From Lytechinus pictus (taxonomy: Eukaryota): a stretch of DNA of 64,000 bases. This document shows positions 12,089-60,401 of this stretch, piece by piece. The notes beneath the pieces were generated by a model that saw nothing but the letters and a program-made list of their open reading frames with translations, had not been told where the DNA came from and did no database searches. The position numbers and the translations under genes are program-made. The stretch is from NCBI RefSeq assembly GCF_037042905.1, contig NC_087252.1, forward strand, positions 1,676,001 through 1,740,000, given 5' to 3'. The first letter of the stretch is position 1. Every line of letters starts with the position of its first letter.

Positions 12089-13140
12089 TTAACTGATGGC
12101 TTTCGTGAACTGGTCAACAGAGGAGGCTATCTTCACTGCAGCATGTCGGTGATTCCATAGTCTTGTACTGACCATAGAGGAGGCTATCTTCACTGCAGCA
12201 TGTAGGTGATTCCATAGTCTTGCACTGACCATAGAAGAGGCTATCTTCACTGCAGCATGTAGGTGATTCCATAGTCTTGTACTGACCATAGAAGAGGCTA
12301 TCTTCACTGCAGCATGTAGGTGATTCCATAGTCTTGTACTGACCATAGAAGAGGCTATCTTCACTGCAGCATGTAGGTGATTCCATAGTCTTGCACTGAC
12401 CATAGAAGAGGCTATCTTCACTGCAGCATGTAGGTGATTCCATAGTCTTGTACTGACCATAGAAGAGGCTATCTTCACTGCAGCATGTAGGTGATTCCAT
12501 AGTCTTGTACTGACCATAGAAGAGGCTATCTTCACTGCAGCATGTAGGTGATTCCATAGTCTTGTACTGACCATAGAAGAGGCTATCTTCACTGCAGCAT
12601 GTAGGTGATTCCATAGTCTTGTACTGACCATAGAAGAGGCTATCTTCACTGCAGCATGTAGGTGATTCCATAGTCTTGTACTGACCATAGAAGAGGCTAT
12701 CTTCACTGCAGCATGTAGGTGATTCCATAGTCTTGTACTGACCATAGAAGAGGCTATCTTCACTGCAGCATGTAGGTGATTCCATAGTCTTGTACTGACC
12801 ATAGAAGAGGCTATCTTCACTGCAGCATGTAGGTGATTCCATAGTCTTGTACTGACCATAGAAGAGGCTATCTTCACTGCAGCATGTAGGTGATTCCATA
12901 GTCTTGTACTGACCATAGAAGAGGACTTTTCACCTGCATGGCTCTTGGAAAGGCACTGAATAAGCCAGATTAATGACGATGAACGAGTATTATGGACTAG
13001 AATGTTATCAATGTATTCTGGACTTCTGTGATTGAGAGACTTGTCAACTAGCACCACAATTTTGAAGGCTACCATCTGTCTCACAGGCAACCATTGGAGC
13101 TGCAGTCGGAGAGACTCTGTGCAAGTCCTAATTGGAGCAG
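12089..13140 (-). mobile_element. Degenerate 3' fragment of an L2-like LINE ORF2, split by an internal minisatellite
   Basis: Translation LQWLPVRQMVAFKIVVLVDKSL...PEYI...GEKSSS...RLWNHL...SSVDQF resembles the L2 C-terminus LHWLPV..RI.FK...AFS..AP.LWN.LP. Confidence 0.7.
12119..12924. repeat. Minisatellite, 57-bp unit x14
   Basis: Head-to-tail agaagaggctatcttcactgcagcatgtaggtgattccatagtcttgtactgaccat, near-identical copies, no spacers. Confidence 0.97.
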
Positions 13141-13707: not shown

Positions 13708-16144
13708 CTGATGGGAAAGGTCAAAGGTTACAGAAAAGGTCAAAAGTTAGATATTGAAAGAAATATTCATATTATATGGCTCAAAATGGGATATTAGACT
13801 GAATTATTCCATGAGTTGAGAGAATATTGCATTAGTTGTAGGAGGAGTGTAATATTGGCTCTAACAGGTGGAATATTTCTGATTCCCATGACGAAAAGCC
13901 ATTCAATATAATCATTATTATCTTCTTTGATGATTATTAGGCCTATGAAAAATTGTTACGTTGCCCTCATCAGCCCATAATCATTCGGTGCTTTTTTAAA
14001 TACCTTTGATGCTGCACTGTAAAAGAAAATAATGCAGGAATGATTCATTTATGTGGTCATGTGGTCAAACATGTCAAAATACATATTAAAGTGCTATTTA
14101 AGACATAGGCCTATTGTAAACAAATTTGAGCATTGAGCTTAACATTTGTATATTTTGTATCTGCCTAAAAAAAACGACTCTGTTTTTTTCGTATGTTAGG
14201 GTTGGTCAGATGAGGGCAACATACATTTTTTTCAATGCTTTATTAAAGGCATATGAGCAATATAAAACCCATGGAGCACTCATGAACAAATAATCTATGA
14301 TTTTTTAAAAAGCTACTGAATTCTTCACGTTCGTTTGCCTCACAGCAACATTGCTAGTGAAAAGCATTATTTGTTGCATGAAATTCTCCCTTTGTAGCTA
14401 CTTAGCAGTAAACCTACCTTCATTCCAAGACATGTCATCTAGACTGATCTCATCATTAACCAAAGTATTAGTTAATTGGGTGGCTGTAAAAAGTACAACA
14501 AAGAAAATTTACAGGTTCATCGATCACACAAGGTCCATTTAAATCTATTCACAACTTAAAATATTCTGAAACATTAATGGTACATGAAAAGTTAAATGGA
14601 TGCTCCGGGCTGAAAATATTTATATCTATACACACAAAAAATATTATATGTGAAATTTACTTGTTTGTATTTATGGCTTAATGTTTATCCATAAGTATAT
14701 GAAAAAATATATATCATTTCAGTTTGTACAAGTACTAACTATGTTTGAGGACAATGTAATATGAAGAAAAGCTAAAAAGCATTTAAAAAATAGACAAAAT
14801 AGGTATTGCAAAACTGGAAATTAGACAAAATGGTTGGTAAATGAACTGGATAGAGACTAACTAGGATTATAGCATGTGGGATTAGACCAAATGAAAAGTA
14901 GACCAAGTGGCAATCATATTCATGAGACACCTTTCCTTTGTAAAGCCTGGCTTGCACCTTTCTGTTTTGGATTCAGGGTTCCCAGCTTTTCAAGAAAACA
15001 AAAATCCCTGATTTTTCCCTGATGAAGTTTAAAAATTCCCTGATAATTATTTAAACCCATTCCCAGTTTCGCATGTTTCTAAGTTGTTGCAGTGAATTAC
15101 ATGTATTTTCAGTATAAAAACAAAAGTGTAAAACTAACTAGTACCACCACATCCAGTCATTCAATGGATGTTGTTTTGAAATGCAAAAAATATAACATGC
15201 AACTTTGTACAAGCATCTGAGCCCATAGGCAAACTGTGATTGCAACCAAATATTTTGCTGCATTGAATGCTGCGTTAGGCTACGTGTGGCTGTTTGGCTA
15301 ACATAGCAATCCACAGCTTAAAAAGCCAAGGTGTGAACTAGGCTTTAGCAGTAAAAGGGTGTGTTGTGTTTACCTCTTTGTCTGGTGTCATACTGGTGTC
15401 TAAGATTCGAGTCACTGAGGATCTTCCAAGCTTTATCTAATCTCTGGAACTCTGAATGACAGCCTTCCCTCTCATCTTCACTCACTTTATCTGGATGATA
15501 CTGATTCAGAGAAACCAACAGAAAATAAATAACATTTAGATTTCAAATTCTAATCCTGAATTTCATAATTAATTAACTACAAAAGGAAAACTTATCATCA
15601 TTCACAATCGTCCACTGTTGTTAACATCATCATCATCAATATAATTGGCAGTTATAGACACTTCATCACCATCGATACCATCATCCCAATCACCATCAAT
15701 ATTATCACCGTCTTCCTCCTTTTCTTCTTCACTATCACCATAACCATCATAATCATAATAATCATCACTATTATCATCACGGTCATCATCAACAACGAAC
15801 TGTGTCACCACCACCACCACCATTATCAATATCAGTTACCATTACCATTACCATCATTATCTTAATCTTCATTTATACCATCCCACACCTCCACCACCAC
15901 CACCACCACCACCACCATCATGACCAATATGAACATCATCATCATCATCAACATCATCACCATCATCATCATCACCACCACAACCATCATTTTCATCATC
16001 ACTTTCCCTGCAATCATTTGAGAGCTTTGAATTTTTGCTTACTTTTAGAACGAGTCTCCTGTAATTAGCTTTCAATTCTTCATACGAGGCTGACGAGGAA
16101 GATTCCAAAATGGTGTATAAATCTTGATCCACCGTTTCTTGCAT
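13535..16144 (-). CDS. DNAJC24: DnaJ homolog subfamily C member 24 / diphthamide biosynthesis protein Dph4 (J domain + CSL zinc finger), 155 aa, 4 coding exons
   Basis: join(16144-16043, 15500-15374, 14483-14418, 13707-13535) = 468 nt, all introns GT-AG and in frame. DLYTIL...YRRLVLK-YHPDK...FQRLDKAWKILSD...YD (J domain with HPD), then ISLDDM...YSHQCRCGGEY...CSNCSLCIEV (zf-CSL). Confidence 0.93.
14418..14483 (-). CDS. DNAJC24: DNAJC24 coding exon 3
   Basis: tttttacag | ATQLTNTLVNDEISLDDMSWNE | gtaggt. Confidence 0.88.
15374..15500 (-). CDS. DNAJC24: DNAJC24 coding exon 2 (HPD motif)
   Basis: aatcag | YHPDKVSEDEREGCHSEFQRLDKAWKILSDSNLRHQYDTRQR | gtaaac. Confidence 0.92.
15594..16000. repeat. 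Degenerate (CAT)n/(CAC)n trinucleotide tract in a DNAJC24 intron
   Basis: Runs of catcatcat and caccaccac between coding exons 1 and 2. Confidence 0.9.
16043..16144 (-). CDS. DNAJC24: DNAJC24 coding exon 1
   Basis: MQETVDQDLYTILESSSSASYEELKANYRRLVLK | gtaagc. In-frame TAG two codons upstream. A probable acceptor at ~16201 and donor at ~16972 suggest a non-coding first exon. Confidence 0.9.
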
Positions 16145-19100
16145 TCTCTATCCCTTTGTTTCTTCCATCAATTTTTTTTCTCTCATCTGCAGGGCTTTCC
16201 TTCAAATGATGAAAACAATAACAAAATGAATAAAGATTGTATTAATTAATTACCAAGAGGGTCTCCAACAAATTTTTGGGGGGCTACCTGTACCTCCTGT
16301 GTTTTATTTTTTGACAAAAAATGAAAAATGTGTTGTGTTTGTTGGATGTACACTAGATCTCTAAGTTAGATCTAGATCAAGTGAACATCATGAAGATTTT
16401 CTTGTTTTTATTCAATGTTGAACTTTAATTTCAACTGAATATTTTCAACTGAATAAATGCTACTAATATCAATTTACAACTGATTAATTTTTTACTAGCC
16501 GTTAAGGACACTCACACTATTGCGAGGTTAGTAGGATGGATATTATATGAGGAGAAATATTGCAAGTTATGACACCAAAAATCTCAAAAATAGTGCTAAA
16601 AACAGTTTTTACAAAACAAATAAGAAAAATAACAGTTACACTGTACTATAGCCTGTGTAGGCTGATAACGAATCTGGTATGATTAAGATTTAATAATAGC
16701 AATAATATTGACAAAAATAATAATAAAGATTCTTTTTTTTCTAACAAACAAATCTCCGATTTCCAAACAGTGAAACACAATGCGACATCAATGGGATTCG
16801 CAATTACATGTCCAGCCAATGAAACATAAGTTTTATACGTGTACAGCGCGGTGGTATGTGGCTCGTTAACGAAAGCAAAGACAAAGTCCTGAATTTGTGA
16901 ATTTAATTTCCATGCAGAAAATCCTGAAAATATCATACTATCGATGATGCTAAACGAAGTATGAATACATACCTGTAAATATAAAGTTAAGAACATATGT
17001 CTATCACTAAATTTTTATTAAAAAAAAAACAAATTTAGTTGGGCCTCCGATCCGATCCTCGCGCGTTAAACGTTATAGCAGAACATGACGTTTTATTTCA
17101 GCGATTGATCTGAATGGCGCAGGGGTTTCCCCGAATTTATTGGGCAATGGGTAGGGGGGGAAGAAGGTGGTGCAGCTGCAGGGGGATAATTTCATCTAAT
17201 CATCTGCATGGCCCTGGGAAGAGGGCAGAGGGGGTGCTGAAACACTCCCAAGATTTTCCTTGGGAGTACGTATTGCGTGTAGGCCTATTATTTTCCATAG
17301 GAAAAAAACCCTGAAATTTTGGAATTCAAGGTGCGAATATATGGATAACTTGAATATGTAACCCAAACGGGAACCCAAATGACCTTCACTATAATTTGTA
17401 TGGAATTTTTTTTTTGCTTTGCTTTTCAAATTTCCCGGGCAAATTTCTCGGCACCCAAATGACCTCCATTTTTTGTATTCTCATTTTTGTTAAACTGTGT
17501 AATATGTCTCTTGTTTTGATTGGTTTAAATAAACTTGAACTTGCATGAACTTGAACCCCCCTTTGTTTTTTTGCCTTAAAATTTTCGGGAGCAATATGAC
17601 TTCCATTTTATAGGAACCCTACTAATAAAAATTGTTCCCAGGACCCTGGTCTTTCCCAGAAATATCTATTTATTTGTATTTTTCGAAGAAAAAATGTAAC
17701 AATTGCAAATTAATTCTATAAATCTGTGATGATCGATGGACAGGAATGTTTTTTTAAATGGAAATCCCTTTCGAGTGACCACCAACACTCTTCTTCTTAT
17801 ATTAGTGTTGCTTTTCAAATTTCTCGGCACCCAAATCACCTCCATTAAGTTGAAGCATAGCAGCGAGCCTGTGGGGGGGGGGGGGGGTGAGTAGTCTGCA
17901 GAACCAGTACGACAATACTCCAGACGATTGCCTGTACTGTTTCTACTGTAGAAGAAGAAGGAGTATCAATTAAGGGAATACCACTGGCTTGGGCCATTCC
18001 TATACAAGCAATTTGCTTTCTTATGGTCCTATCCATATTCTGTATTATATTTTGCCACTTTATTGCATATGTACATGGTATGATTTGTATATTTCTATAT
18101 TATAATATGTCATATTTTTACATGACTATATACACCGTAATTTATTATTACCTAAAAATAAGTCATCATTATTTTGTTTTAGACAGCAGGTTGAAAAGTG
18201 TTGTGAAAATGGCTGATTTTACTAGCATGCAGGGGCGTAACAGGGGTCGGTGGAGGGGGGGGGGGGTGGACAAGAGCCAACAATTTCCCGGTCATATCAT
18301 GGTATATGAACAGGCAGTGGCGTATTTAAGAAAAAAAATTGAGGGGGGAGGCAGATATGGCGTATTGAGCAAAATTTATTTAAAAAATAAGAAAATAAAA
18401 AGTTGCGAGCGAGCGAGCAAAAATTTTGACATTTTTCTTACAAAAATCAAATTTTGTGATAAATTTTGACATAATATTTGTTAAATAATATCATATTTCA
18501 GCCCTTCTCTCTTTGCTTTTTTCCCCCCTTTCTCTTTTTTTTCATCTGTATGCAACCGTGAACAGGATTTTTTTCACGGCGCGCGAGCATTTGGGCTTAG
18601 CTCTATGCGGCAGTGGCGTGAGGAGTCAAAAAAAAAGAGGGGGCACAACATGGCGCGTGCCAAGAGTTGCTTAATTAATAATATAAGTCCTGATCGAGCG
18701 AAGAGAGCGAGAAAATCTCCTTTTCATGAGAATCTAACTTTGAGATAGATTTTGACATGACATTCAGACAATACCATCATATATACGTGTACCTAATACA
18801 TAATTTTTTTTTATTTGGGCCTTCGTGGAACTTTTGGGGGCCATGGCCCAAACTCTTCCACCTGTATGCCAGTGCTATGCGAGTGGGGTTCGGGGGCTCC
18901 GCCCCAGAACCTCTTGATATTATTAAAGCCATGCATTTCAGCCCTTACAGATGGCCCTATTTTTAATCAAAATTAATCGCGGGTATACGGCTTTTACACA
19001 ACACATATGAAAGTGGGGGGGGGGGGGGGCGGCTGGCCATGCAAAAAATTATAATCAGATGGTAACTTTTACGTTTTTGTACACGGCTTTGGAAAAAAAA

Positions 19101-20481: not shown

Positions 20482-21322
20482 GGTCATTCTCAGATGTTAA
20501 AGGGGTACAGAACACATTCGTGAGGTTCAATTTTCTTGGGTAAAAAGGGGCACTGATTCAAGAAAATACACTTACATGAAGGCAAGGGGCACTTGCTCAC
20601 ACATAAAACGAGTCATTCTTATGTGAAAGGGGCACAGTACACGTTCGTGAAGGGACATTTTTCTTGGGTAAAATGGGACACTGATTCAAGAAAGGGCACT
20701 TACAAGAAGGCAAGAGGCGCTTGCTCACACATAAAACGAGTCCTTCTTAGGTGAAAGCGGCACAGTACACGTCCGTGAGGGGACATTTTTCTTGGGTAAA
20801 AAGGGGCACTGATTCAAGAAAGGGCACTTACAAGAAGGCAAGGGGCGCTTGCTCACACATAAAACGAGTCCTTCTTAGGTGAAAGGGGCACAGTACACGT
20901 TCGTGAGGGGACATTTTTCTTGGGTAAAATGGGGCACTGATTCAAGAAAGGGCACTTACAAGAAGGCAAGGGGCGCTTGCTCACACATAAAACGAGTCCT
21001 TCTTAGGTGAAAGGGGCACAGTACACGTTCGTGAGGGGACATTTTTCTTGGGTAAAATGGGGCACTGATTCAAGAAAGGGCACTTACAAGAAGGCAAGAG
21101 GCGCTTGCTCACACATAAAACGAGTCCTTCTTAGGTGAAAGCGGCACAGTACACGTCCGTGAGGGGACATTTTTCTTGGGTAAAATGGGGCACTGATTCA
21201 AGAAAGGGCACTTACAAGAAGGCAAGAGGCGCTTGCTCACACATAAAACGAGTCCTTCTTAGGTGAAAGGGGCACTGTACACGTTCGTGAGGGGACGTTT
21301 TCTTGCGTAACAAGGGGCACTT
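20482..21322. repeat. Tandem repeat, 128-bp unit x ~6.5
   Basis: ctgattcaag recurs at 20553, 20681, 20809, 20937, 21065, 21193. The unit is built from gggcac-containing subrepeats. Confidence 0.95.
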
Positions 21323-22630
21323 TTCAGTGCTTCAAAAAGTGGAGGGGGGCATGCTGTGCCCCCTGGCCCCCAGGATCGCCGCCCCTGATTAAGAGAATTT
21401 TTTACTGTAACTCTTGCAAGCGTATAAAGCTTTTAATTATAGGTAGGCATATAACGTAACTTTACGTAAAGGACTTTTATGTCCTGATTGCGACCATTAT
21501 TGCATTATCAAGCAAGCTTATAATAGACTTCAATCATGCACAATGTAATATGCCATCCATTCTTCCCATTCTTTATTTGTTTTCTTCGTTTTCCGATTTT
21601 GCTTTTGGCTCATTCCATTTTACCTTCATTCCTCGCTTTTGTTTGCCTCTTTTCTTTCCCCTTCACACAATCTTTTAATTTATTTCCCTTTCTTAATACT
21701 AATCACGTTAATGTATTAGTATTTCGGAATGATAAGTTCTTTCTCACATGCTTTTCCCTTTCTTTCTTTCTTTTTTTTCTTTCTTTCTCAGTCTCCCTTT
21801 TTCATTTTCCAGCTTTTTTTCTTCAGTTTTCGGATAAATCCGCCGGGAGGGGGGGGGGGGGGGGGGGCTACCCCCTGCCACCGCCTGTTACGCCACTGCT
21901 AGCATGGAATCGCCCAACTATTATACTTTAGGTTGGGAGATCAGGCCAATTAATCTCTCGCTCCCAATTTTTTTAAATTTTTTTTATTTCCTCTTTTTTG
22001 TTTTGTTTTATTTAATGATAAAAATGTTGTAAATGTTTTGATTGCTTGTGATTGTTTGTGATTTGTTTTTTACTTGTTCAATAAAAACATTAAAAAAAAT
22101 CAGCTCAGATATAAAACACTTAGTGATAATGTAATACACGCCATGCAATGTTGTACAGAGCATGTATATTTTCGAAGTATAAATGCGAATATTGCAAGGC
22201 CTATTTGGTTTTTCGACAATCGATCCCGCCTTCATCCTGCCAATCAATGCATTATATTATAAAAGGCTATATATAATGAACCATGCACTCCAAGAACATT
22301 ATGATATGGTGGCAATCAAGTTGTTTAAAACTTTATATAGACATATAAAACAAACGTGACACGGGCCGGTCTACGTGACAAATGTTCAGTGGTTGGTAGT
22401 TATTTCATACAGTGATTACCTATCAATTTTTTTTATAATGTGTACATTATGTGAATTGAAGTTGTACTTTGTAACTTTTTGAGCAGCCAGTGCATGATTA
22501 TGAATCACATAATCATCAGTCTTATCTAGGGTTAGAGTGTATGTGTAGAGGGATGGTAATCTACATGATCTAACGACTTCGTCAACTTATTCTCGCACAA
22601 AACTTGATCAAAGGAAAATACAATTCCACT

Positions 22631-22676
22631 ATGGGTTTGGCGCTGGCATTGATTTATATACTTTCATGTACATACT
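22631..22676 (+). CDS. Ig-GTPase exon 1 (signal peptide)
   Basis: MGLALALIYILSCTY t|gtaagt; hydrophobic, continues as SLLPVTA in exon 2. Confidence 0.75.
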
Positions 22677-22916
22677 GTAAGTATTAGAACAACTTATTCT
22701 GTAATGAATGAATCAGGTTTTACTTATATTCCCTGTTTTTCGTTCATATTTAATTCACCCGGTATTCCTTGCACTGTCATCGAGTAAATGGGACCGATCA
22801 TTGAGTTGTTTCGTTGTGTTGGCGATAATCAAATTATGAAGTCGAAGTTACCTGAAAACTTTATATTGGTATTGGGGAGAATCAGAGATACCTCAGTATC
22901 ATTATGATGATATGAA

Positions 22917-22959
<43 letters not shown>

Positions 22960-23135
22960 TATACTATTCACGAATCTTCCCTGAAGAAGGTAGATGCCTA
23001 CCGAAAATTTGGAAAGTGAACAATAAGGAACTTAATTGTTGGCATTGCAAAAATTGCATTACTCGTGAATTTGTTTCGCATTTCTGATGCCGTCTTATTA
23101 TTGCCAATACGTGGACAACCAAGATGTATATGTAT

Positions 23136-23177
<42 letters not shown>

Positions 23178-26100
23178 GGGAAAGAGAGGGAGAGAGAGGG
23201 GGGGGGGGGAGAGATATTCATATTCACATGAATTAAAGAGTGGGGCTGAGATTACGGGAACATTAATGGCTTAAAATGTTTCCAAATATTATCGCTAATG
23301 TCCTTTTCGAAATGTTTGTTAGCTCTACTTCCGGTCACTGCCATCAGTCCACCCTCCGTCCCCGATGACGCAGTATGGACATCACCTTCTGAAACGTTCT
23401 TGGTTGGGCAGAGTGGTGCATCGTTAAAGTGCTCGTTTCAAGAGAATCCCATTGCTGTTTACTGGTTAAAAGGTAAATGATTTAAAAATGGAATACACTA
23501 TTGTCCTCACAAGATATCCGGTTATAGGCGCTATTGAGCGTCAAATTCTCACTTGTATAGCGTCAACTTTAATTATTTGACGTCCCATGCGAAAAGTTGA
23601 CGCTCAAGAGATCGTGGTTAAATTTATATTCATACTAAATATAGTTGCCAATCATGAAACATGTTTGTATAATCATGATAATAATTTAAGTCAACAAAAT
23701 ATGATAGTGCATATTTTAGAGAGATTCGAATAAAAAGGAAAATCACAATTGGAAATCCAGTGTTTTTATAAGAGTGTATAGGATACTTTACAACTGCCAT
23801 ATTGAAACTATGATATATTCAGGCCTATATAGCTTCAGCAGTCTTGCAAAGACTATTTCATGAACTCGATGGCAGACAATGATGTTTCAACAGTAGCTTT
23901 ATCATCTTTATGATAATCTTCATGTGATTTTTTTCAAAGAATCTTTTACTTTAGTTCTTCCTGCATATGCTGAAATAGGGGTTAAATGAACCCCAGGGTT
24001 GGTACATAGCGGCACTCCAAGGTGTGCTAAATCTTCACGGTTCGGATCCCTGAAATATTCCCAAAGAATCAAAATAGAGAAGTAAGATATGATGAAAAAT
24101 AAATATTGTAAATGTAATTTCTTGAAGGTGAGTTGCTACAGACTGCAATGCCGCTTATCACGTGGTACAGAGGGGAGATAACCACCCAGAATGAAGGATT
24201 TGAGTTTGGCCCAGACTTCTCGCTGTTATTTGAGCATCCTGGGATATCAGATACCGGAAGATACTACTGCAGGGTGTCGAATCATCAAGGGATCCTCAGC
24301 TCGAACCATACGGATCTTACAGTGTTAGGTGAGGTTTATGAACCCGTGTTTATCTAGAATAAATTAATGGTGCAGTTTCGATAAAGTAGACGTTTGTTTA
24401 ACCAAATTCCTTGCAGATGCCGCCATCCGTTAAAGTCTCACGGTGGCGGATCCCCTGCCTTCCACTAGACTGCAAATTATTTTTCAACAAAAATTATGGC
24501 TAGAATTATTGTAGGTCTGTATTGCATTTCAGCTACATTCAAGTTTTGTAATGGTTTATATATATACCATTATTATGTTGATTACCATTTTTAATCTTTT
24601 AGTGTATAGTTTTATGGGATGCAGAATAAAACGAAATCACAAACAAACTATAAACTCGTAATAATTCTTACGGAATGACTTGCACTTATAATCCAAAAAT
24701 GTAACATTCTGTTGCTTCTCCTAAAGTTCAAGAATCAGATGAGGTTGACAAAGGTGAAGCCGGACATCATTATCTTCGGGTGACCCAGTGTGGAGGAGAC
24801 CCGTTTGATCAGGATTCACCATGTATCATCAAAGTCCACCCAGACCAGGACATCCTTGAACTTGATTGCATCGTAGAGGGCGCCCACCAACCTGTTCTTC
24901 TCACCTGGCATAATGCGGGTGCACTCCACATTTCCCTGAATACCACATCTTCCAGCGAGAAAATACTGGAAGATGGAAAGTACTTAAAGAAAATTTCTTT
25001 GAGACTGCACACTGAAGAGATGGAATCGGAGCGAAAAAGATTGATCTGCATGGCACAAGGTCCCAACGCTACTGAAACCGTAAACGTCACAATTCAATTT
25101 GAACCAGAAATACCCGAAGAAGGTATGTGAAAAAGGTTCATGATGATTTTTTCTACTGTCTGAAAAGGCATATTGATGAAATGCTAGTCATTTGGTTAGA
25201 TTCGAACTTAGAAGATCATTGTTTTATATCCATGCTCAGGTTTATCCAAAGTTTTGGCGCAGGGACACCACAAAATGTTCTCCCCTTGTAAATCGGTTCA
25301 AACATCTCCGTTTTTTATTGATAATAAATGAAACGAAAACAATAACGTGAATAACACATTTCTCTGCAGATAGGCCAGACATATTGAGTGATACATTGGA
25401 ATTAAATAAAGTCCATGTACGGCAACGTAAATTTGATGGAATAAAAAATACTTTAGGAAAGAAAGTAAAGAAAAGAAAGATACCACCTGTAATGAATAAT
25501 GATAACCCCCAAAAGAGAGAAAAACCTACTTTCAATAATCAAAAGTTTCAAAGTATAATTTTTACAAATTAATTAAGCTTCATTTTCAAAACCCTTTTTA
25601 AACAGGTGGCAATTTCAACTTTTTACTGTTTTTTTAAATAACTGATGTGTCGCCTTTGATCGGAAAGGAGACAGTGGCAGAGGCGTCGATACTGAAGAGG
25701 GGGGGGGGGGGGGCAGGGGATGATAGCCTCCTCAATTAAAATATTGGAGTAATTTTTGATATTTTCTTCATTTTGCCACCCCAGCCCCATCCGGAACATG
25801 GATTAATTACGCTCCTGGGCAATGATGATGAGTGGGACAAAAACAAGAACAAAAATAAATGAATTACAACGATTTAAATGAAATCAAAATGAAATCGCAA
25901 ACGTTGCATGAACTATAGATCCATTATCAATAATAATTTTGAAGATTTTTTTCTCGATACTTTGTTTTTATTAATGAAACTTTGTTTGTTTGTATCGTGT
26001 GTATGTCAGGTCCTTCAACAGTGGGGATCGTCGTGGGAGTAATTTTTATTCTGGCGGTCATTTCTGCACTTGTTGCTTTTGTCGTCTGGAAAAAACTTAT

Positions 26101-29100
26101 CAAGAGACCGAGGGAAAAAGGTAAAATTATATTTTTAGTATAGTCTGATAATGTCGTTCCAAATAATCATATTTATTTACATTGTCATGAAAAAGAAAAA
26201 TGTTTATTATCTATGAAACTGTGTTTATGCATTATTACATATAGAAATTGCGCAATATAAATGAGAATTATTATCATTATTATCTCTAATACTTGTATTA
26301 ATTTGTATCATTTTATTGTACAAAGTAATAGACTCAATAACATAAGCAAACAAACATTTCAGAAACAGACAACAGACAAACATTCATGTTTACACATTAA
26401 TGTTAGGATATAAGTTGGACTGCTTACATGGATTACTAAAGTATTTTTCAGTTTCGTAGTTCGAAAGTTTGTTGTATCATAAGCAACGAATAATTTACTT
26501 GTTTGTTATGAATCATTTTTCTTATATGCAGCTCAACGGAAAAATCAAGAAGAACTAGAAATGCTTGGTATGTATCTATCTGAAAATAAATAGGGTCTAA
26601 CTTTTGCTCGAGTTATATCAAGAGAAGGGGGGGGGTCAGCTACACTGTAAAAACGCTGTTTAAAATCTTTAAACAACTGTTTAAACCTTTTAAACAACTG
26701 TTTAAACTTTTTAAACAAGTTGGTTAAAAAGTTTAAACAATTACAAACAAGTTTAAACAACTTGTTGTTAGAGTGACAGGCTTAAACAACGGTTTTATTT
26801 TACTGTGTAAAGTTAATACCCATCTTGTTCATGAGACACTGTTACAGATAATTAGAACACCCACTCATCATCTCTGGATATTCAAAATTTTCAGCTTGCG
26901 CTCCACGCTCGCATAATTTATTGTGTGAAAATCGTCTCCACGATCGATTCACAGCAAACAGATCTTAACAGATCCGTTTGCAAGTCAGTATAGCCTAAAT
27001 CAAATATTTTAGCGCGGGCTGCTCGCTCAATGATGTGAAGCACCCCCCAAAAAAAAAATTGGTCTGAATACTATTAATATATCGTATCATAATCAGTTCA
27101 CTGATCCGCTAATTTGCCCTCGAGTTATTTTAATCAGTATTCCTTTGAAGGACGCACCGCCGTTTAATTTAATTTCCGATGATTATAATAATATGTTCTT
27201 CTGTATTCACTTAGATAAAACCACTGAAGAAAAACGAAAAAAGGTGTTGGCTTTCAGACCCCAGAACACCACCAAATCTCCTTCAGGTGGAAGTGATGAT
27301 CGTCCTCCACCCATACACCTCGGTGTCTTCGGCCTATCACGAGCTGGAAAGTCTGCCTTCATCAATTCTTTATTCTTTGCTGTTACAGGTAGGCCTATAG
27401 TTTGGGATGAAATGTCGATATAGGCCTATCAAACAAAATATTTTTCGCGGTTGTAACTATTTCCTCATATCCACTGTTTGCAAAAATAGTTAACACGAAT
27501 TCATATGAAATGAGGATTAAATTAGAGATTAATTGCTTATGCTTGAATTAGACAGGAAAAATATCCGAATTTTCATTACTCATACCTCGGTCACATTTTG
27601 TTCTACGACGGCCGTACGGCGAGTCGAAAACAGCCGTTTTGACATTTTTGTACCAGCTAAAAATAGGTGGTTTGAGTAAAAATGAATAAAACGGCTGTTT
27701 TCAACTCGCCGTACGGCCGCCGTAGAGCAAATGTGACCGAGGTATGAAGGTCCGCTCACTGACTCCTTTTATGAAATAAATATACATGTATTCCGCCATC
27801 TCGTGACGAGATCTTATTCATCACTAATAACACTGACAAAGTCCCCATTCTTCAACCATGTCAAAAATAATTGGTCCAAAGTTTCAGAGGTCCCCCCATT
27901 TTGTGCAAAGAAAGGATCGTATGTATGCATTATCAATCATCTGATTCATCTATATTAAATAACAAATCAAGGGGACGGGTTGGTTGGAATGAATACCGTT
28001 TGCTTTTCTTGTTTTAGTCCGGGGGGGGGGGAGGGCACTTACATTGACGAGTGGATACCATGCGCGACCCCCAAAACACGTGAAAAGGATGTCTTTTTAA
28101 AGATAGGGCACGTAACGTAATAAGGGTGTTAAAAACGCTAAAATAATGAAAAAAGGGTATCAATTTTCGCTAGGAAAAATACCTGTTTAGGGTCAAATTT
28201 GAGAGGGTGTAAAAATTGAGACTAAAATCTTTTATAAAGGACTACTTTTTGCCCCATGAGTCAACACTACGTGTTTAGAATACGATTTTGTGCGAGATGT
28301 GGGAGGTGGGGCTGTACTCAACCAATCAGGTAAAGGTAAAAACGACGACAGTGTCAGTGACATAACAGTAAATATCGTATACTTGTTTAGGGGGTCAATT
28401 CAGAGAATACTCGCGAGGAGTATCGTTTTGTTTCCAATACTTGTTTAGGGTAGGGTTTCACACGCCAATACTTGTTAAGGGGTGTATTTTCAGAATATGG
28501 AAAATACGTTTTAGGGTGCTGCTTTTCGAGACCCCATGGTCGCGCATGGTATCCACTCGTCAATGGAAGTCCCCTCCCCCTGGGGGTGTTAGTACAGGCG
28601 GACGAAGGCATCTCTACTCTCTTTATTCATAAAATGAATATTACAATGTTCTTTTTCAAATAGGCAATTATTCTTCTCATATCGCCGACGAGTCGAACCA
28701 AAAAAATCAGAGGACAAAATGGAGAGAAGCTAAAACCCTGACTCCTTATATAAACATATTGGATAATAGAGGTCTAAAGAATTACAACAACGTCATTTCC
28801 GAACCCATGGAACAGATTAGTAAGTCATCGTTGTTTTCTTAATTTCTTGTTGGGGCAGTGGTAATGGTCGCCCCCTCAAAAAAGAAAAAAAACCAAAGCA
28901 CGCCAATATAGAGCCAAAACGGGGAGAAGGAAAAAATCAGTGGAGAAAAAGAAGATGAAGTATCTTTGTGGGTTTTACATGTGCATGTATTATATCATGG
29001 AGGTAGAAAGAAATTCTACCTCCATGATTATATTATAATCAGGATAATATTTGTATTCGTGTTTGTCATGTTTGTAGGAGGAAGGAGAGGACAGATCCCC

Positions 29101-30646
29101 CAAAGGACAGTAAAAGATGGCGATGTCGTGGATTGTCCCATTCTGATATGTAATTTCAGGTAAACACATTTATATGATCAGTATTTTTTATGATTATTTA
29201 CGGTTGGCATTTCTCCCATCACATATTTTCATTTGATTATCAGTCGGGACTCTTTGTAAGGTTTCAGAGTTTAGCAGCCCCTTGAAATAAATCACTTACT
29301 ATAATCGTGTAGTAGGTCCCACGGAATATATATCAATGACTTTGTGAGTGTGTTAGCATGGACCTAGCTGTAGTATAGGTTCATGGTGATAGTAAGCCTA
29401 CTGAATCATATTTATGGTAAAACAACTTTCCTCTTTCTGTCATGTCTATTCTGATAATATTATAGTAAAGAGAGTCGTGATGAAAATGCTACGAAGTTTA
29501 TCTCGGATTTTTCAAGAGAAGTTTATGAGCTATTAGGTGAGTATTATGATGACACCATCAGGTAATCATATGTGACATTATTTTGATAACGATGCTGCAG
29601 GCCGAATCAACTCAAACTTGATATTGGTATTAATCTTTGAACTTGTTTCTTTCAAACCGCGCAGAAATGAACGTCTGAAAACATCCAAACTATGAACGCG
29701 ATTTTCTCGAAATCATGTTTTGGAGACAAGCCGAGGTTTGAGCCGTTTCGTAAAATCACTGACGAATTTTGAACTAAACTGAGACTTTATTATAGATATT
29801 TATGTATTCTATGAATTATCTATCTAAAAAAAAAAGGTGTTTTGGTGCATCTTGATGCACACGACTGATATTGTTATATAATTTTTGTTTTGTTGAAGCA
29901 ATAAAGATCAAGAAAAAAAACCTCAAACTGTATTATCTTATCATTATGTCAAAACATTAAAAAAAAAAAAAAAAAAAATATGACTCATGTCTAGCAAACA
30001 GGTTTTCTTTCCATCACCTCTACTTTAAAGTGTATTTTTCGCGAATAAAGAAATCAGTAAACAAATAAAAGATTTCAGAAATTGATGGGTGTCGACTACT
30101 CACGCTTTCTATTCATCGGGGGGGGGGGTGGCACTTTGAAATATTTCGTAATGTCCTTCCCCCAGATGAATAAATTTTTCTGCGGATCGAGACCATTGAG
30201 ATCAAATTATCGAGGCATCTTCTTTGTCGGAATAGAGTACCGGACAAATATTTTACCTATAAAAGATAGTTACATTTCATCAAATATATGTTTTTTAAAT
30301 CAAACACGATCAAACAGTGTACGTGCAGAGCAAAGTGAATGCGATTAATTTATTTTATGGTTTACCATTAGGTCGACGTTTGGTTGTTGTTTTGACACAC
30401 AAGGATGAATTGGCAAAGGATGACGATGGAATAGATAATATGAGAAACTGGCTTGTCAAAGAGTGTGAAATACCTCCTGATCATGTATTGATCGTTGAAA
30501 ACTACACTCAAGAAAACCATGAGGAGAACGTTATAAAGAGTAATGAACTCTTGGACTTTCTCTTAATATGTACGGATCTAGCCAAACAAAACATCGCCTT
30601 TAGACAGAAGAACGAAGCCCAAAAGGGGTCTTGTATTATTTTGTAA
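22631..30646 (+). CDS. Predicted type I membrane protein: signal peptide, 2 Ig domains, TM helix, IFI44-like P-loop GTPase, C-terminal CaaX; 565 aa, 11 exons
   Basis: join(22631-22676, 23323-23472, 24128-24328, 24727-25122, 26010-26120, 26532-26567, 27215-27388, 28664-28819, 29078-29159, 29466-29536, 30372-30646) = 1698 nt. Every intron is GT-AG, phases are compatible and there is no internal stop. Confidence 0.82.
22976..23016 (+). ncRNA. Candidate minimal type I hammerhead ribozyme in a Penelope-like relic between (TA)n tracts
   Basis: cttcc-CTGAAGA-a-GGTAG atgc CTACC-GAAA-attt-ggaaag: conserved core, 5-bp stem II, ttcc/ggaa stem I and palindromic aaattt stem III. Confidence 0.55.
23323..23472 (+). 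CDS. Ig-GTPase exon 2 (N-half of V/I-set Ig domain)
   Basis: ttgttag | ...GASLKCSFQENPIAVYWLK g|gtaaat; B-strand Cys and C-strand Trp. Confidence 0.88.
24128..24328 (+). CDS. Ig-GTPase exon 3 (C-half of V/I-set Ig domain)
   Basis: ...FSLLFEHPGISDTGRYYCRV...TDLTVL g|gtgagg; DxGxYxC motif. Confidence 0.9.
24727..25122 (+). CDS. Ig-GTPase exon 4 (second, C-type Ig domain)
   Basis: cctaaag | ...LELDCIVEGAHQPVLLTW...RLICMAQG...VNVTIQF g|gtatgt; N-glycosylation sequons NTT, NAT, NVT. Confidence 0.88.
26010..26120 (+). CDS. Ig-GTPase exon 5 (transmembrane helix)
   Basis: gtcag | GPSTVGIVVGVIFILAVISALVAFVVWKKLIKRPREK g|gtaaaa; 23 hydrophobic residues then a basic stop-transfer stretch. Confidence 0.88.
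26532..26567 (+). CDS. Ig-GTPase exon 6 (36-nt linker)
   Basis: tttttcttatatgcag | AQRKNQEELEML g|gtatgt; phase 1-1. Confidence 0.72.
26641..26809. mobile_element. Short CAC-ended MITE (EnSpm/CACTA-like) with internal tttaaacaa repeats
   Basis: tacactgtaaaa ... ttttactgtgta. Confidence 0.65.
27215..27388 (+). CDS. Ig-GTPase exon 7 (G1/Walker A)
   Basis: cacttag | DKTTEEKRKKVLAFRP...IHLGVFGLSRAGKSAFINSLFFAVT g|gtaggc. Confidence 0.9.
27583..27744. mobile_element. Palindromic MITE (Harbinger-like)
   Basis: ~58-bp arms tacctcggtcacattt...aaaacagccgtttt / aaaacggctgtttt...aaatgtgaccgaggta; TCA/TGA flanks. Confidence 0.75.
28019..28585. mobile_element. MITE with ~50-bp TIRs
   Basis: cattgacgagtggataccatgcgcgacc / ggtcgcgcatggtatccactcgtcaatg; flanks gttttagt / gtgttagt (8 bp, one mismatch). 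Confidence 0.78.
28664..28819 (+). CDS. Ig-GTPase exon 8 (G2/G3)
   Basis: tttcaaatag | GNYSSHIADESNQKNQRTKWREAKTLTPYINILDNRGLKNYNNVISEPMEQI a|gtaagt; DxxG present. Confidence 0.87.
29078..29159 (+). CDS. Ig-GTPase exon 9
   Basis: tttgtag | RGRRGQIPQRTVKDGDVVDCPILICNF ag|gtaaac. Confidence 0.8.
29357..29385. mobile_element. 29-bp CATGGACCTA-type palindromic insert (older copy)
   Basis: gtgttag-CATGGACCTA-gctgtagta-TAGGTTCATG-gtgatag. Confidence 0.65.
29466..29536 (+). CDS. Ig-GTPase exon 10
   Basis: attatag | SKESRDENATKFISDFSREVYELL g|gtgagt; bridges phase 2 to phase 1 exactly as required. Confidence 0.8.
30372..30646 (+). CDS. Ig-GTPase exon 11 (G4 motif and CaaX)
   Basis: ccattag | GRRLVVVLTHKDEL...HVLIVENYT...KGSCIIL*. 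Confidence 0.9.
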
Positions 30647-31631
30647 GCATTTTCCCCCTTGTAAGTGAACTTTAATAATTGTTATAATCCATCAACATTT
30701 TCGATTATTGTTGACAAATGTATATAGGTCTGCACAACAACAACAACAACAACAGCAACAACAAATACAAAAGGTGGAAAGGGCCAAGGAGTTTCATTGT
30801 TTTCCATCGTTTTGTAAAAACGTTGTCACCATGGTCAGGGGTAATTAAACTCTTCATATCCTTTCGTTTTTAGAGTGTATTTTGTTTTGGTTTGTATTAT
30901 AGAGGTTCGGAGTGGACTGAGGGTTTCATAAATGCTCTGCTATTGTTATTTTGCTATTATTACTTATGATATGAGCATTATTCCAAAATTACCCCCAAAA
31001 ATGAACAAGAAAAATGGAGGAAAATCTCACAATAGTGAAAAGTCCTTTTTTCTTTTAAGATGACATTGTCTACCCATCTTTATCTGTAAAAGAGAGAATC
31101 GAGAGGTTTTTCAACCTTCTGACTGCATTATTGTACTTTATTTGGAATACTAATACACACTATTCCGACGAGTGTTGCTGGAGGGGGGAAGTTTATTTTG
31201 CTGACTTTGTATTATACAGTAAAAAAAATAAAGAGGCGCATTTGACCTTTGATGTAAATATATACAAGTTAAAGTCTTTAAGTTTGTTTCACTCTGGGGG
31301 TCAGGGGCTGCTTTCTCCTTGCCCTCAACAGAAAAATATATGATATGTGTAGTGTCATGGTCTTAAGTTTTTTTTTCAGATCATAATTATGTATTGTTTA
31401 ATATTATGAAATGTGAGCCATAAGATGGATTTTTTGTGCAAAGTTTGTTTTGTGTATAGTTCAATTAAATTGAAAAAATGACAAGTCTTGAACTGTTTAA
31501 AATTCTCAATTTTGTGATGTTCCCTGTGAAAAGATCCTGGCCTCCTTGACGTAACTCCCTCATAATGTAAAATCAACAAACCGCTAGTGTTGCGTAAGTT
31601 ATGTGGAAAGTTCATGTAGAGAATTTATCAA

Positions 31632-32220
31632 AGGGATGCCCCGGGCTAAAACTATTTATATCTGAATAATTAGAATAAAATGTAAATTTTATCAAAATCT
31701 GATGACAAATAGCGATTTTTTTTTTTTTAAGTTTAGCAATATATTGTGACAACAGTTATATGCAAGTCATCATGAATATTATTTAGATGAGCTGATGATG
31801 TCACATTCCCACTTTCCCTTTTCTCATGTTATTACATAAAATCATAAATGTTTCATTTTTTCATACATGTGCGAATAATTATGTCTCTCTTGTATTGAAA
31901 TAAGTTGCAGCAAGTAATATATCTAATGCACTTAAAAGTTGTTATTCCAATAATTCGCTTGCTGGGATAAAACTTGAATTACCCTAATTTCATATATATA
32001 ATAAAATATGAGAGAACAAGTGGGGATATGACATCATCAATCTGCTCATTGAATATTCATGAAGACATGCCTAGAACTGTTTCACAAGAATAATGCAAAT
32101 CTTTAAAATGCCATAACTTTGTTATTCGTAGTCCGATTTGGATCAAATTTTCAGTGTTTTGTTTGTCTGATTTTTCTTTATCTGTTTAAATCATATTATT
32201 TTTTAGCCCCGAGCATCCCT
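31632..32220. mobile_element. Kolobok-like non-autonomous element
   Basis: agggatgccccgggctaaaa / ttttagccccgagcatccct with degenerate TTAA-like flanks. Confidence 0.7.
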
Positions 32221-32724: not shown

Positions 32725-34264
32725 TACACACAAAAAACGAGAACTATTTTCCATGAGTAAAATTGTTTTTTACATAAAGAATTAAGTGCAAAAATTCGTA
32801 ACGTATGTGTTTTTACTCGAGAATCTGGGTTTCTGTTACACCTGATCTTTTTTTCAAGGACATGACTTATTAACTACTTTTCTTGAGTATCCCTGTCAGT
32901 GAAAGTATGTAAAACGTCCGTACAAATGAGTTTTTCTTCAAGTTTGTAAGGTATGATAGCAGAACGGGTGAAAAAACTCACAGCCAGGTAAAGCGATAAT
33001 CTGACGATTAACTGCGCTGAGAAAATGAGTAGTATATGACTCTTGTATGTGAGTTTTGGGGTGTTGAGATCATGCATCCAAGTAATTTTACTCGGATCTC
33101 GCGTTAATTGCTTGCGCGCACACGTGATACCGGCCAAATGTGCAGAGCATGAAGACTTTTCTGGTAAGTTCTACATGTCTTTTTATTTATTTTCCCCCTT
33201 TTCTTCTATAATTACTTTTCTTGACAATAATAGCTTAGACCTACATGTATGGGGCAAACATAAATGCTATTTATGGTGACAACAGAGTGCATTGATCTAC
33301 ATTCTCATCCATCCGAGGCTCACGCCTCTCGGTTTGGGTAACCACACACCAGCCTGTTGTTGCGCCGCTACCCCGGGGCCAGAAGGGAGTGAAGGCCAGT
33401 GTGCCGCTACGATTGCTGGAGTCATTTATGAGGAGGGCAAATAAGTGACATCGTCCATGATTTATGTTTATGAGGAGGGCAAATAAGTGACATCGTCCAT
33501 GATTTATGTAATCATGGACGATGTCACTTATTTGCCCTCCTCATAAATGACTCCAGCAATCGTAGCGGCACACTGGCCTTCACTCCCTTCTGGCCCCGGG
33601 GTAGCGGCGCAACAACAGGCTGGTGTGTGGTTACCAAAACCGAGAGGCGTGAGCCTCGGATGGATGAGAATGTAGATCAATGCACCCTGTTGTCACCATA
33701 AATAGCATTTATGTTTGCCCCATACATGTAGGTCTAAGCTATTATTGTCAAGAAAAGTAATTATAGAAGAAAAGGGGGAAAATAAATAAAAAGACATGTA
33801 GAACTTACCAGAAAAGTCTTCATGCTCTGCACATTTGGCCGGTATCACGTGTGCGCGCAAGCAATTAACGCGAGATCCGAGTAAAATTACTTGGATGCAT
33901 GATCTCAACACCCCAAAACTCACATACAAGAGTCATATACTACTCATTTTCTCAGCGCAGTTAATCGTCAGATTATCGCTAAAACTAATCAAGTGTGTAA
34001 TATGCTCACATACTCAAAAAGTCAGTAAATATACTTTAAACATACTCATTACACTGGGTTAAGTTACTCATTAGATTGAGTTATTCAAATTTACTCACTT
34101 GATGTGTCACTATAGTGTCAAATGAAATATACTCGACAAGATGAGTTTTCAAAGTACCTTCATTGAGTGAAAGTACTCATCAAAGTATGTCGCTATAGTG
34201 TCAAAATTATTTTGACATTTGAGTACGATTACTAACACATGCAAGTTTCTGTTTTTTGTGTGTA
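32725..34264. mobile_element. CAC-ended MITE enclosing the large palindrome
   Basis: tacacacaaaaaac (32725) / gttttttgtgtgta (34264); internal actca/tgagt subrepeats. Confidence 0.65.
32992..33980. repeat. ~1-kb near-perfect inverted repeat (foldback)
   Basis: Arms 32992-33462 and 33510-33980. Only two mismatches noticed. A 42-bp tandem duplication sits at the centre. Confidence 0.95.
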
Positions 34265-43067: not shown

Positions 43068-45291
43068 TTAAAGAAAAAAATATCCCAATTGCATTAATTC
43101 TATAAATATGTGATGATGAACAGGGACTGCATTTTTTTGAAATACGACTATATACTCCAGACGAGATGGCCTGTAATGTTTCTACTGTAGAAGAAGGAGC
43201 ATCAAGGGAATACAACTTGGGCCATTCCCTACAAGCAATTTGCTTTCTTATGGCCCTATCCATATTCTGTATTATATTTTGCCACTTTAGTGCATATGTA
43301 TTGTATGATTTGTATATCATAATATGTCATATATTTACATGACTACACCGTAGTACTTTGATACCTCAAAATAAGCAATCATTATTTTGTTTTAGACAGC
43401 AGGTTGAAACGAAAATTGTTGTGAAAATGACTAATTTACTAGCATGCAGGGGCGTAACAGGGGTCGATGACCAGGTAGGAGGGGGGGTCAAGAGCCAAAA
43501 ATGTCCCGGTCATAATGGTATATGCACAGGAAGCGGCGTAATGAGGCAAAACAAAATTAGGGGGCCAGATATGGCGTATTGAGCAAAATTTGTTTGAAAA
43601 AAAAAATTGAAAATTAAAAAGTTGCGACATTTTTATTACAAAAATCAAATTTTGTGATAGATTTTGACATAATATTTTCAAAAAATAATAAAATATTTCA
43701 GCCCTTCTCTCTGTCTTCTCCTTCTTCTGGAAACAGTACAGGCTACCGCCTGGTGTATTGTCATACTTTCCTTTTTCCCCCTTTCCCTGAGCGAGCGAAG
43801 TGAGCGAGAAAAAAAATCACCTTTTTCATGAGAATCTAGCTTTGAGATAGATTTTGACATGACATTCAGAAAATACCTTCATACATGTATCTTATATTTT
43901 TCTCTTTTTCTTTCATTGTCCTTGGTTGTGGAACTTTCAGGGGCCATGGCCCAAGCTCTTCCATCTGTAACCCGGGGGGGGGGGGGGTCCGCCTCGCAAC
44001 CTCTCGAAATAAAACAATTTTAAACCTTACAGATGGACGCTATTTTTTATCAAAATTAATCGCGGGTATATAGCTTTTACCAAAGGCTTTTACACAACTC
44101 ATTACGGGGGCCGCGGAACGGTTTCGAAAGTGGGGGAGGGGGGCTGAGCTGAAAGTGTGTGTGTGGGGGGGGGGGGGGCTGACCATGCACAAAATCATAC
44201 ATGGCTTTGGAAAAAAAAATCGGGGGCTGAAGCCCCAGCCCCCGGTTCCGCGACCCCTACATTCCCGAACATGTGGAATAATTATTGATTGATTGATTTT
44301 CTCTAAAATTATTCAAATCAACATTTTTCTGGGGTGGACTTGACCTTTGAATCAGGTTTAATGTATAATAAGAAATTCAATATTTGTAAAGCGCATAGAA
44401 AGTCTTTTTTATATTATGCGCTACATAAATTTTAAATGTTAGGCCTATTATTATTAGTAAGGTGGGAAAATTTGTGAAAAGTCGCCAGCGAGCGAAGTGA
44501 GCCAGAAAAAAATCGCCTTTTAGAAATTAAATACTTGTTATATAGATTTTCTAATGTTTTTACCATTCATTTCAATTCGTTGCCTTCTTCACTTTCTTTT
44601 ATTTTCCCTCGGCTGTGGAACCAAACCCTTCCCGCACTGTACGCGAGTGCTTCAACCTAAAGCTTATTGCAGGAAGGGTCCATATGGGGGGGGGGGGGGC
44701 ATTATAGAGCCCTGTGATGATTGAAGATGAAAAGCCTCTACTGCCTGGAGTCTTGGGCAGCTGAGAGTCCCCGGTAGCTTTGGATATTTAGCCAAAGTAA
44801 AGATTAAAAGGCTTTTTACGGTAACTCTTAACAGCTAGCGTCAAGCTTATAGGTTATAGGTAGGGACATAATATTACGTATATAAGGGGATGATAATTAT
44901 GTCTAGCCCTAATTCGCTAAGGACTTTTTAAAATCCTGATTGCGACCGTTAATTAATTGAAAGCTTACACTGTTATGAAAGACTTCATGCACGATGTTAC
45001 ATGCCATCCATCTTTCGTCCCGTTCATTATTTGTTTTCCCTATTTTCTATTTTTCGATCTTGCTTTTGGCTCATCCATTCTACCTTCATTTCCCGCTTTT
45101 GTTTGCCCCTTCTCTTTCCCCGTCCCACAATCATATGATTTATTTCCCTTTTTTACTAATCAAATAATTTGTTCTTTTTCACATGCCTTTCTTTTCTTGA
45201 TTTCCCGCTGTTCTTCTATTTTCCCTTTTATCTTTTTTTCTTTTCACTTTTTTTCCATTTCCCTTCCCTTTCCCCCTTTCTTTCTTCCTTC

Positions 45292-45342
<51 letters not shown>

Positions 45343-46484: not shown

Positions 46485-46560
<76 letters not shown>

Positions 46561-52370: not shown

Positions 52371-53132
<762 letters not shown>

Positions 53133-58926: not shown

Positions 58927-59640
<714 letters not shown>

Positions 59641-60355: not shown

Positions 60356-60401
60356 ATGGGTTTGGCGCTGGTATTAATTCATATACTTTCATGTACATAC
60401 T
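60356..60401 (+). pseudogene. Duplicate of Ig-GTPase exon 1 (signal peptide) with intact donor; no gene body follows within the window
   Basis: MGLALVLIHILSCTY t|gtaagt; intron similarity ends at ~60558. Confidence 0.7.

Follow-up and report, generated by a model that had tools for sequence, protein, structure and literature searches.

A sea urchin receptor family joining immunoglobulin domains to a predicted IFI44-like GTPase, described from a locus of Lytechinus pictus

The locus and its gene

The present analysis concerns a stretch of 64,000 nucleotides (nt) of the sea urchin Lytechinus pictus (NCBI RefSeq assembly GCF_037042905.1, contig NC_087252.1, positions 1,676,001 to 1,740,000 of the forward strand), which is referred to here as the window and numbered from its first letter. 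At 22631..30646 it holds a gene of 11 exons (Table 1) encoding a signal-peptide-like N-terminus, two immunoglobulin (Ig) domains, a predicted transmembrane (TM) helix and a GTPase (G) domain. It belongs to a genuine receptor family, expressed and conserved but without a name, whose members have an immune-type GTPase of their own.

Each of the 11 exons lies where the initial annotation of this DNA placed it, all ten introns run from GT to AG, and the joined frame of 1698 nt encodes 565 amino acids (aa) with a single stop, at its end. The intron between exons 9 and 10 is of phase 2 and the other nine are of phase 1. The model is borne out by its letter-for-letter identity to RefSeq XP_063959092.1 (‘uncharacterized protein LOC135154834 isoform X1’, Lytechinus pictus). 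A second RefSeq isoform (X2, 522 aa) uses another last exon and is without both the G4 motif and the C-terminal CaaX box (C-aliphatic-aliphatic-X).

Table 1. Positions and content of the window gene, its duplicated first exon and the receptor-type loci of the L. pictus genome (Cys, cysteine; UTR, untranslated region).
Feature	Position	Strand	Residues	Content	Basis
Exon 1	22631..22676	+	1-15	Signal-peptide-like hydrophobic N-terminus	Junction 22676/23323 in run X1, possibly paralogue-derived
Exon 2	23323..23472	+	16-65	V-type Ig, first half (C52)	Pfam V-set
Exon 3	24128..24328	+	66-132	V-type Ig, second half (C113)	Pfam and RNA
Exon 4	24727..25122	+	133-264	Linker with extra Cys pair (C154, C165); C-type Ig (C180-C240)	C2-set_2 weak (E 0.016); all-beta fold in predicted model
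Exon 5	26010..26120	+	265-301	Single TM helix (~269-291), then basic residues	Hydropathy; predicted helix 273-325; RNA joints 25122/26010 and 26120/26532
Exon 6	26532..26567	+	302-313	Juxtamembrane helix	RNA and predicted model
Exon 7	27215..27388	+	314-371	GTPase domain start; G1 P-loop codons 27331-27354	RNA record 4
Exon 8	28664..28819	+	372-423	G2 threonine T389; G3 DxxG (405-408)	RNA
Exon 9	29078..29159	+	424-450	GTPase core strand	RNA
Exon 10	29466..29536	+	451-474	GTPase helix	RNA
Exon 11	30372..30646	+	475-565	G4-like THKD, ENY motif, long C-terminal helix, CaaX (C562), stop	Predicted model; run X1 depth on exon; junction 10-11 not among joints listed
3' UTR	30647.. at least 31470	+		Contains last exon of isoform X2 (from ~30728)	RNA record 8 (30503-31470)
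Duplicated exon 1	60356..60401	+		Intact donor; upstream flank also copied	
Receptor-type loci	Window gene; paralogue B C8:1.772-1.794 Mb; C8:4.24-4.26; C8:14.97-14.99; two at C1:24.24-24.32; C1:28.9				

Transcript evidence

Four public sequencing runs (X1-X4) were compared with positions 21900-32000, the first as assembled contigs (Logan), which are graph paths and not single molecules. Run X1, whose kind is not on record, is taken to be RNA because its joints skip introns exactly. Among the joints listed for it, nine of the ten junctions (1-2 to 9-10) are present as GT..AG joints and junction 10-11 is not. In the contig that spans junction 1-2 there are two variants of the neighbouring paralogue, from which this contig may derive.

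The most informative contig is record 4 (352 nt, depth 23.7), which covers exons 5 and 6 together with 60 nt of exon 4 on one side and 144 nt of exon 7 on the other, and reaches 27357, beyond the start of G1 at 27331. Over these 144 nt it shows no difference from the window gene, whereas the neighbouring paralogue differs there at more than 30 places. Since record 4 spans the Ig, TM and P-loop exons with gene-specific letters, these exons lie on one mRNA path of the window gene. The initial annotation had made its single-gene reading depend on a transcript linking the TM exon to the G1 exon, and one contig joins both; Ig-TM-GTPase is one gene and one transcript. The neighbouring paralogue (B, described below) seems to be transcribed too, because record 1 carries 7 differences in 122 nt, exactly that paralogue's count. 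In the raw RNA runs X2-X4 (~6% of each sampled), depth on the exon bins was zero or near zero and only intronic repeats were covered. A separate search across sequencing runs listed no RNA run that holds the sequence. Intron 7 contains repeats at 27580-27747 and 28030-28580, one of them with inverted ends, that draw numerous RNA reads derived from other parts of the genome.

Ectodomain and membrane segment

In the 565-aa protein, Pfam identifies a V-set domain (37-132, E 3.7e-7) and, weakly, a C2-set (177-241) and an MMR_HSR1 domain (349-451). The AlphaFold2 model of the full protein (27-row alignment; mean predicted local distance difference test score (pLDDT) 84; predicted template modelling score (pTM) 0.53) contains two beta-sandwiches, an unbroken helix at 273-325 in and past the membrane, and an alpha/beta domain that is closed by a long helix. 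Hydropathy reveals one strong segment (19-residue mean up to 3.19) at ~269-291, followed by KK, as well as a weaker N-terminal segment that is, by hydropathy, compatible with a signal peptide. Pfam, predicted fold and hydropathy thus uphold the proposed order of signal peptide, V-type Ig, C-type Ig and TM helix, the C-type domain being weak in Pfam and backed by the predicted fold. With its V and then C domain, canonical Cys pairs and single TM segment, the protein conforms to the V+C type I Ig receptors of the nectin, B7 and butyrophilin kind, and its predicted type I topology would place the G domain in the cytosol. A flexible link between ectodomain and TM segment is predicted from pLDDT values below 50 at 262-274. 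Fold searches match the ectodomain to nectin-3 (the top Foldseek hit), CD80, butyrophilins and the V+C chains of T-cell receptors.

The GTPase tail

The tail retains intact G1 (353-360), G3 (405-408) and G4-like THKD (483-486) motifs and the terminal CIIL, all noted in the initial annotation, to which the G2 threonine T389 is now added. Its fold was assessed on a model of the G domain of paralogue P0007 (72% identical to the window gene in the tail; pTM 0.84) against 48,161 solved chains, rows within 1 Z being treated as tied. The best solved-structure match is Toc33 (Z 13.8, root-mean-square deviation 4.0, 202 aligned), followed by a broad tied TRAFAC field that includes mitofusin, EngB, GIMAP4 (Z 12.2) and septins (Z 11.4-11.9), while the top Foldseek ranks go to GIMAP2 and GIMAP7 (E 2e-7). 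Within the ESM Atlas, the best match to residues 314-565 is an unnamed chordate cluster (template modelling (TM-)score 0.82), and clusters named IFI44 or IFI44-like make up six of the ten matches listed (TM-score 0.78 over ~230 residues); the feature-based likeness to IFI44 is 0.96, with 195 of 256 features shared, the two ESM Atlas searches counting as one source of evidence. The best matches are TRAFAC GTPases and IFI44-like clusters; structural matches lying outside these groups would, by the initial annotation, have refuted the proposal.

By predicted fold and motifs, the tail is a putative TRAFAC GTPase with a variant G4 (THKD). Its IFI44-like character, asserted in the initial annotation, is upheld by predicted-structure and language-model similarity, and IFI44 is not the name of any of the 23 homologues that were looked up. 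Searches of the PDB by protein sequence returned weak Ig matches only and by profile weak generic GTPase matches, with no IFI44 entry in any list; a viral fold library matched the tail to generic G domains only. Among 13 aligned receptor-type rows, AGKS is kept in 13, a threonine at the aligned G2 place in 11, DxxG in 12 and the TH of G4 in ten, and some members are without certain G3 or G4 residues (P0014). A homodimer prediction for the paralogue G domain scored 0.00 and was used neither for nor against any reading.

The CaaX box noted for the window gene is there, CIIL with C562 fitting the C-aliphatic-aliphatic-X pattern, but it is no feature of the receptor family: among receptor-type proteins with a complete end it is kept in two of 13 and missing from 11. 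Because 15 of 56 relatives have Cys at position -4, against 1.0 expected, CaaX is regarded as an old feature of the G-domain group, and the sequences indicate that it is inherited and dispensable in receptor forms. A CIIL-type end leads, as a rule, to geranylgeranylation.

A multigene family in sea urchins

Sequence comparison places the window gene in a multigene family, absent from the initial annotation, with members in five named sea urchin species. A phmmer search with P0007 against 1.84 billion representatives returned 57 hits (P0058, a repetitive cadherin-like protein, was dropped as spurious); word-index protein searches matched Lytechinus proteins only. The domain order Ig, TM, G was found in 12 of the 57 hits with Ig profiles built from these proteins and, independently, Pfam detected a V-set in 11 of 40 scanned hits. 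Among 23 proteins looked up by name, receptor forms, with one to three Ig domains and nearly all named ‘uncharacterized’, come from L. pictus, L. variegatus, Strongylocentrotus purpuratus, Diadema antillarum and D. setosum, and one more is given without a species. Most of them share 23-31% identity, and one, P0019, holds a signal peptide and TM segment within 421 aa. Diadematoid and camarodont urchins split ~200 million years ago.

In the L. pictus genome, at least seven loci carry Ig exons and then G-domain exons, ordered and on the same strand; a TM exon or a TM-bearing RefSeq model is present at each of the six examined for it, which are all but C8:4.25. About 20 further G-domain loci (the counts being lower bounds) have no Ig exon within the stretches examined. 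The GTPase cluster at C8:31 Mb was considered as receptor-type and rejected, no Ig exon being found in 170 kb covering three of its genes. At C8:31.05-31.43 and 35.71-36.03 Mb lie two clusters, possibly mirror copies of each other, with at least nine members of a soluble CaaX-type subfamily; in the G-domain tree this subfamily is nested within the receptor branch. A TLD profile search of the genome gave seven exon matches at four places, none of them at the GTPase loci found.

Paralogue B, neighbouring genes and other features of the window

Paralogue B (C8:1771693-1794035) possesses all receptor exons, including an intact TM exon of frame-compatible phase, with an intron of 13.6 kb between TM and G1 and a damaged acceptor at its exon-6 copy; it has lost the CaaX box through a 17-nt insertion, and its RefSeq annotation is limited to the GTPase half (272 aa). 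Synonymous divergence (dS) from the window gene is 0.17 in the ectodomain and 0.40 in the GTPase, a contrast that suggests gene conversion or a chimeric history of B. The duplicated exon 1 within the window is a candidate first exon of this downstream paralogue. It lies in a region, 44900-63514 (continuing past the end of the window to ~79900 in the same numbering), of repeated copies of the upstream flank and exon 1 of the window gene; the copy with ATG at 60356 has an intact donor and that at 63470 is cut off. Two near-identical non-LTR (long terminal repeat) retrotransposons (46760-52229 and 53330-58681) interleave the exon 1 copies; they encode a zinc-knuckle open reading frame (ORF) 1 and an endonuclease-reverse transcriptase ORF2, are flanked by TTTC runs and are presumably Tx1/L1-like.

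Genes 290-400 kb downstream have a V domain 39% identical to that of the window gene. Two of them, L106 and L107 (C8:1.99 and 2.08 Mb, minus strand), are V+C Ig genes followed by exons with weak Death matches (two of five exons, E 0.006-0.008, below the cut-off). They are candidate Ig-TM-multi-death receptors and give a hint that the V+C cassette occurs with other tails. A V-domain tree hints at ectodomain swapping between genes with GTPase tails and genes with death-like tails (87/82); swapping was not retained, as the approximately unbiased (AU) test does not reject a single clade of GTPase-linked V domains (p 0.149). An Ig-TM-NACHT gene at C8:1.97-2.21 Mb was likewise sought and not shown, for none of 73 NACHT matches in the genome falls on the Ig exons there. 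At C9:1.35-1.41 Mb (L077-L081, L103), a tandem array of close V+C+TM genes has the same ectodomain type as the window gene, with no G-domain exon in the 80 kb covered.

Elsewhere in the window, a frame end on the minus strand at 15869-16147 is probably an exon of the upstream neighbour and, by eye, we take it to resemble the start of a J-domain protein. An 869-aa endonuclease-reverse transcriptase ORF of a non-LTR retrotransposon occupies 5195-7804 (minus strand), and tandem repeats of 57 and 128 bp together with a self-inverted element of ~990 bp lie at 12119-12938, 20499-21321 and 32992-33980.

Origin and selection

Soluble relatives of the G domain are present in urchins, frogs (Xenopus, Pelobates) and Hydra. 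Amphibians have many soluble members, some with two G domains, and in P0051 (Bombina bombina XP_053551275) a guanylate-binding protein is fused to a related G domain. Of 49 G domains, 14 were set aside because they were duplicates, isoforms, double domains or fragments, and the other 35 were placed in a tree rooted on Hydra that includes no true IFI44. All 14 receptor-type rows of this tree fall in one 16-row branch (support 93/97, below the starred mark). The same branch holds a model that is probably truncated and a soluble subfamily; excluding the latter is not rejected by the AU test (p 0.248).

The simplest, though unproven, reading of these sequences is a single fusion in an ancestor of the echinoids. 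Exon shuffling in phase 1 would have joined a V+C+TM cassette to a GTPase that was soluble, CaaX-anchored and from an IFI44-related group without a name, whereupon the TM helix would have made the CaaX box dispensable. Between the window gene and paralogue B, the ratio of non-synonymous to synonymous divergence (dN/dS) is 0.28 for the ectodomain and 0.38 for the GTPase, so both halves are constrained.

Relation to described systems

No description of an Ig-TM-GTPase layout was found in the literature searched (mostly open-access texts without supplements, where a mention in a gene table could be missed), and the initial annotation's impression that the architecture is not a characterised family holds to that extent. 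The window protein shares with IFI44 and IFI44L the predicted G-domain fold and a similar order of the G1-G4 motifs. IFI44, however, is intracellular with a putative TLDc N-terminus (according to the part of PMC5614904 available), in place of which the window protein has Ig-Ig-TM and is predicted to span the membrane. TLD occurs in 79-82% of the members of two ESM Atlas clusters, whereas residues 1-313 of the window protein gave no TLD match at E up to 1. Pfam likewise matched neither NACHT in the window protein nor, at E up to 1, AIG1 (PF04548) in P0010 and P0007, and the Pfam families listed for 24 family members (25 of 36) do not include AIG1. Judged by its sequence, the window protein is not an IFI44, not a GIMAP and not an NLR.

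The nearest described analogue, and the best precedent by analogy, is AjNLRC4 of Apostichopus japonicus, which in the available portion of PMC8699970 is an Ig-Ig-TM-NACHT protein that binds microbes, dimerises and drives coelomocyte phagocytosis. Both are echinoderm membrane proteins that pair two Ig domains outside the cell with a P-loop NTPase inside it; AjNLRC4 differs in its NACHT (STAND) tail and, as far as that text goes, a second TM segment, against a TRAFAC GTPase and one TM segment here. The Toc33/Toc34, GIMAP/AIG1 and septin families supply the best solved-structure matches and are likewise membrane-anchored dimerising G domains, but their membrane anchor is C-terminal or missing and they are without an extracellular recognition domain. 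The excerpt at hand of PMC7053062 reports AIG/GIMAP genes as not known from Strongylocentrotus. Sea urchin IgV-IgC1 receptors (PMC3308324) similarly combine V and C domains on a putative TM receptor, with no cytoplasmic GTPase named in the portion seen. In cnidarians, immune cells induce homologues of IFI44 (PMC13319465), and an expansion of zebrafish ifi44 is described without mention of an Ig fusion in the accessible text (bioRxiv 10.1101/693333).

The main point against full novelty is a chordate ESM Atlas cluster named ‘Interferon-induced protein 44-like’ (75 members, 411 aa, I-set Ig in 99%, TM-score 0.78), which, by its cluster record, resembles the urchin receptors in having an Ig and an IFI44-like domain in one protein; the pairing may thus not be unique. 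At 411 aa, its members could hold a signal peptide and TM segment, as P0019 does. None of the 57 phmmer hits could be recognised as a chordate Ig plus IFI44-like protein.

Proposed function and alternative explanations

The protein is best read as a type I receptor with a built-in IFI44-like GTPase, and we give an even chance to its serving innate recognition, with clustering bringing the G domains together. A ligand, on a microbial surface or a non-self cell, would cluster the ectodomains and so bring the G domains together; their dimerisation, modelled on Toc33/34, GIMAPs and septins, would switch the nucleotide state, and the switched G domain would drive a local membrane response (uptake, phagosome handling or restriction of the bound object). 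Dimerisation of G domains is established for Toc33/34, GIMAPs and septins. In the window gene, a geranylgeranylated CIIL end would additionally hold the G domain at the inner leaflet. An immune family is favoured because lineage-specific duplication and low identity (23-31%) fit immune gene families, and the toad fusion of a relative to a guanylate-binding protein counts in the same direction.

Several observations weigh against an immune receptor of this kind. Seven receptor genes are few compared with the sea urchin TLR or SRCR expansions. V+C ectodomains are, going by the predicted fold, equally typical of adhesion molecules, nectin-3 being the top Foldseek hit. IFI44L stands under GTP binding and not GTPase activity in the Gene Ontology (GO) tables in the part of PMC12008787 available. 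There is no positive selection in the one pair tested (window gene and B), and no family-wide invariant arginine after G3 can be named as a trans-acting finger.

An unlikely but serious alternative is a recognition receptor whose tail acts as a GTP-binding scaffold or inhibitor that hydrolyses GTP hardly or not at all and is not allosterically coupled to the ectodomain, Ig-TM setting its location only. IFI44 and IFI44L have been proposed as feedback dampeners. The THxD in place of NKxD at G4, the absence of certain G3 or G4 residues from members such as P0014, the predicted flexible link to the ectodomain and the placing of IFI44L under GTP binding only, in those same GO tables, all suit such a tail. 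G1, G2 and G3 are, however, intact in the window gene and most receptor members. Moreover, TH at G4 is also found in active Toc34/GIMAP-type GTPases.

Somewhat more doubtful is an adhesion or junction protein (nectin-, JAM- or CAR-like) whose Ig domains bind neighbouring cells and whose G domain arranges membrane or cytoskeleton at the contacts, immunity being no particular part of its role. Nectins head the full-model fold search and recur in it, both halves are under purifying selection and the tail fold is septin-like; the rapid turnover and tandem duplication and the immune GTPases among the nearest named relatives of the tail argue otherwise, as does the gene's absence from three of the four RNA runs (the tissues of which are not on record), unlike a housekeeping junction protein.

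It is improbable that the chief product is a soluble CaaX-anchored GTPase, released or separately started, with the receptor form as precursor or minor isoform. The window gene has kept its CaaX box and has a Met at the end of exon 6, and RefSeq lists B as GTPase-only and L. variegatus P0009 without TM; yet contig depth in run X1 is alike over exons 4-7 (23.7) and 7-10 (24.4), albeit a weak measure, B has its intact, frame-compatible TM exon, and 11 of 13 receptor-type proteins are without CaaX. Two separate genes, joined through modelling error or read-through, are largely refuted and scarcely credible, for although Logan contigs are graph paths and junction 10-11 is missing from the joints listed, a single contig with gene-specific letters covers Ig-TM-G1 and the same order recurs in seven L. 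pictus loci and five species.

Returning to the receptor with a built-in GTPase, we raise tentatively, as possible rather than probable, that the family is an enzyme-linked receptor class undescribed in animals (‘receptor GTPases’), in which an Ig-bound ligand dimerises and switches an IFI44-like G domain. If so, its logic would be comparable to that of receptor tyrosine kinases, one V+C+TM cassette would have exchangeable tails (GTPase; death-domain-like nearby; NACHT in sea cucumber), and a first handle would be gained on how IFI44-type G domains are activated.

Significance

To our knowledge, animal single-pass receptors carry kinases, phosphatases, cyclases, GTPase-activating proteins, TIR or death domains inside and no GTPase of their own. 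A conserved and expressed family with the Ig-TM-GTPase layout therefore represents a testable new signalling logic in a laboratory sea urchin. Furthermore, IFI44 and IFI44L are common interferon-signature genes of poorly defined biochemistry, for which a version tied to an ectodomain predicts control by proximity or dimerisation.

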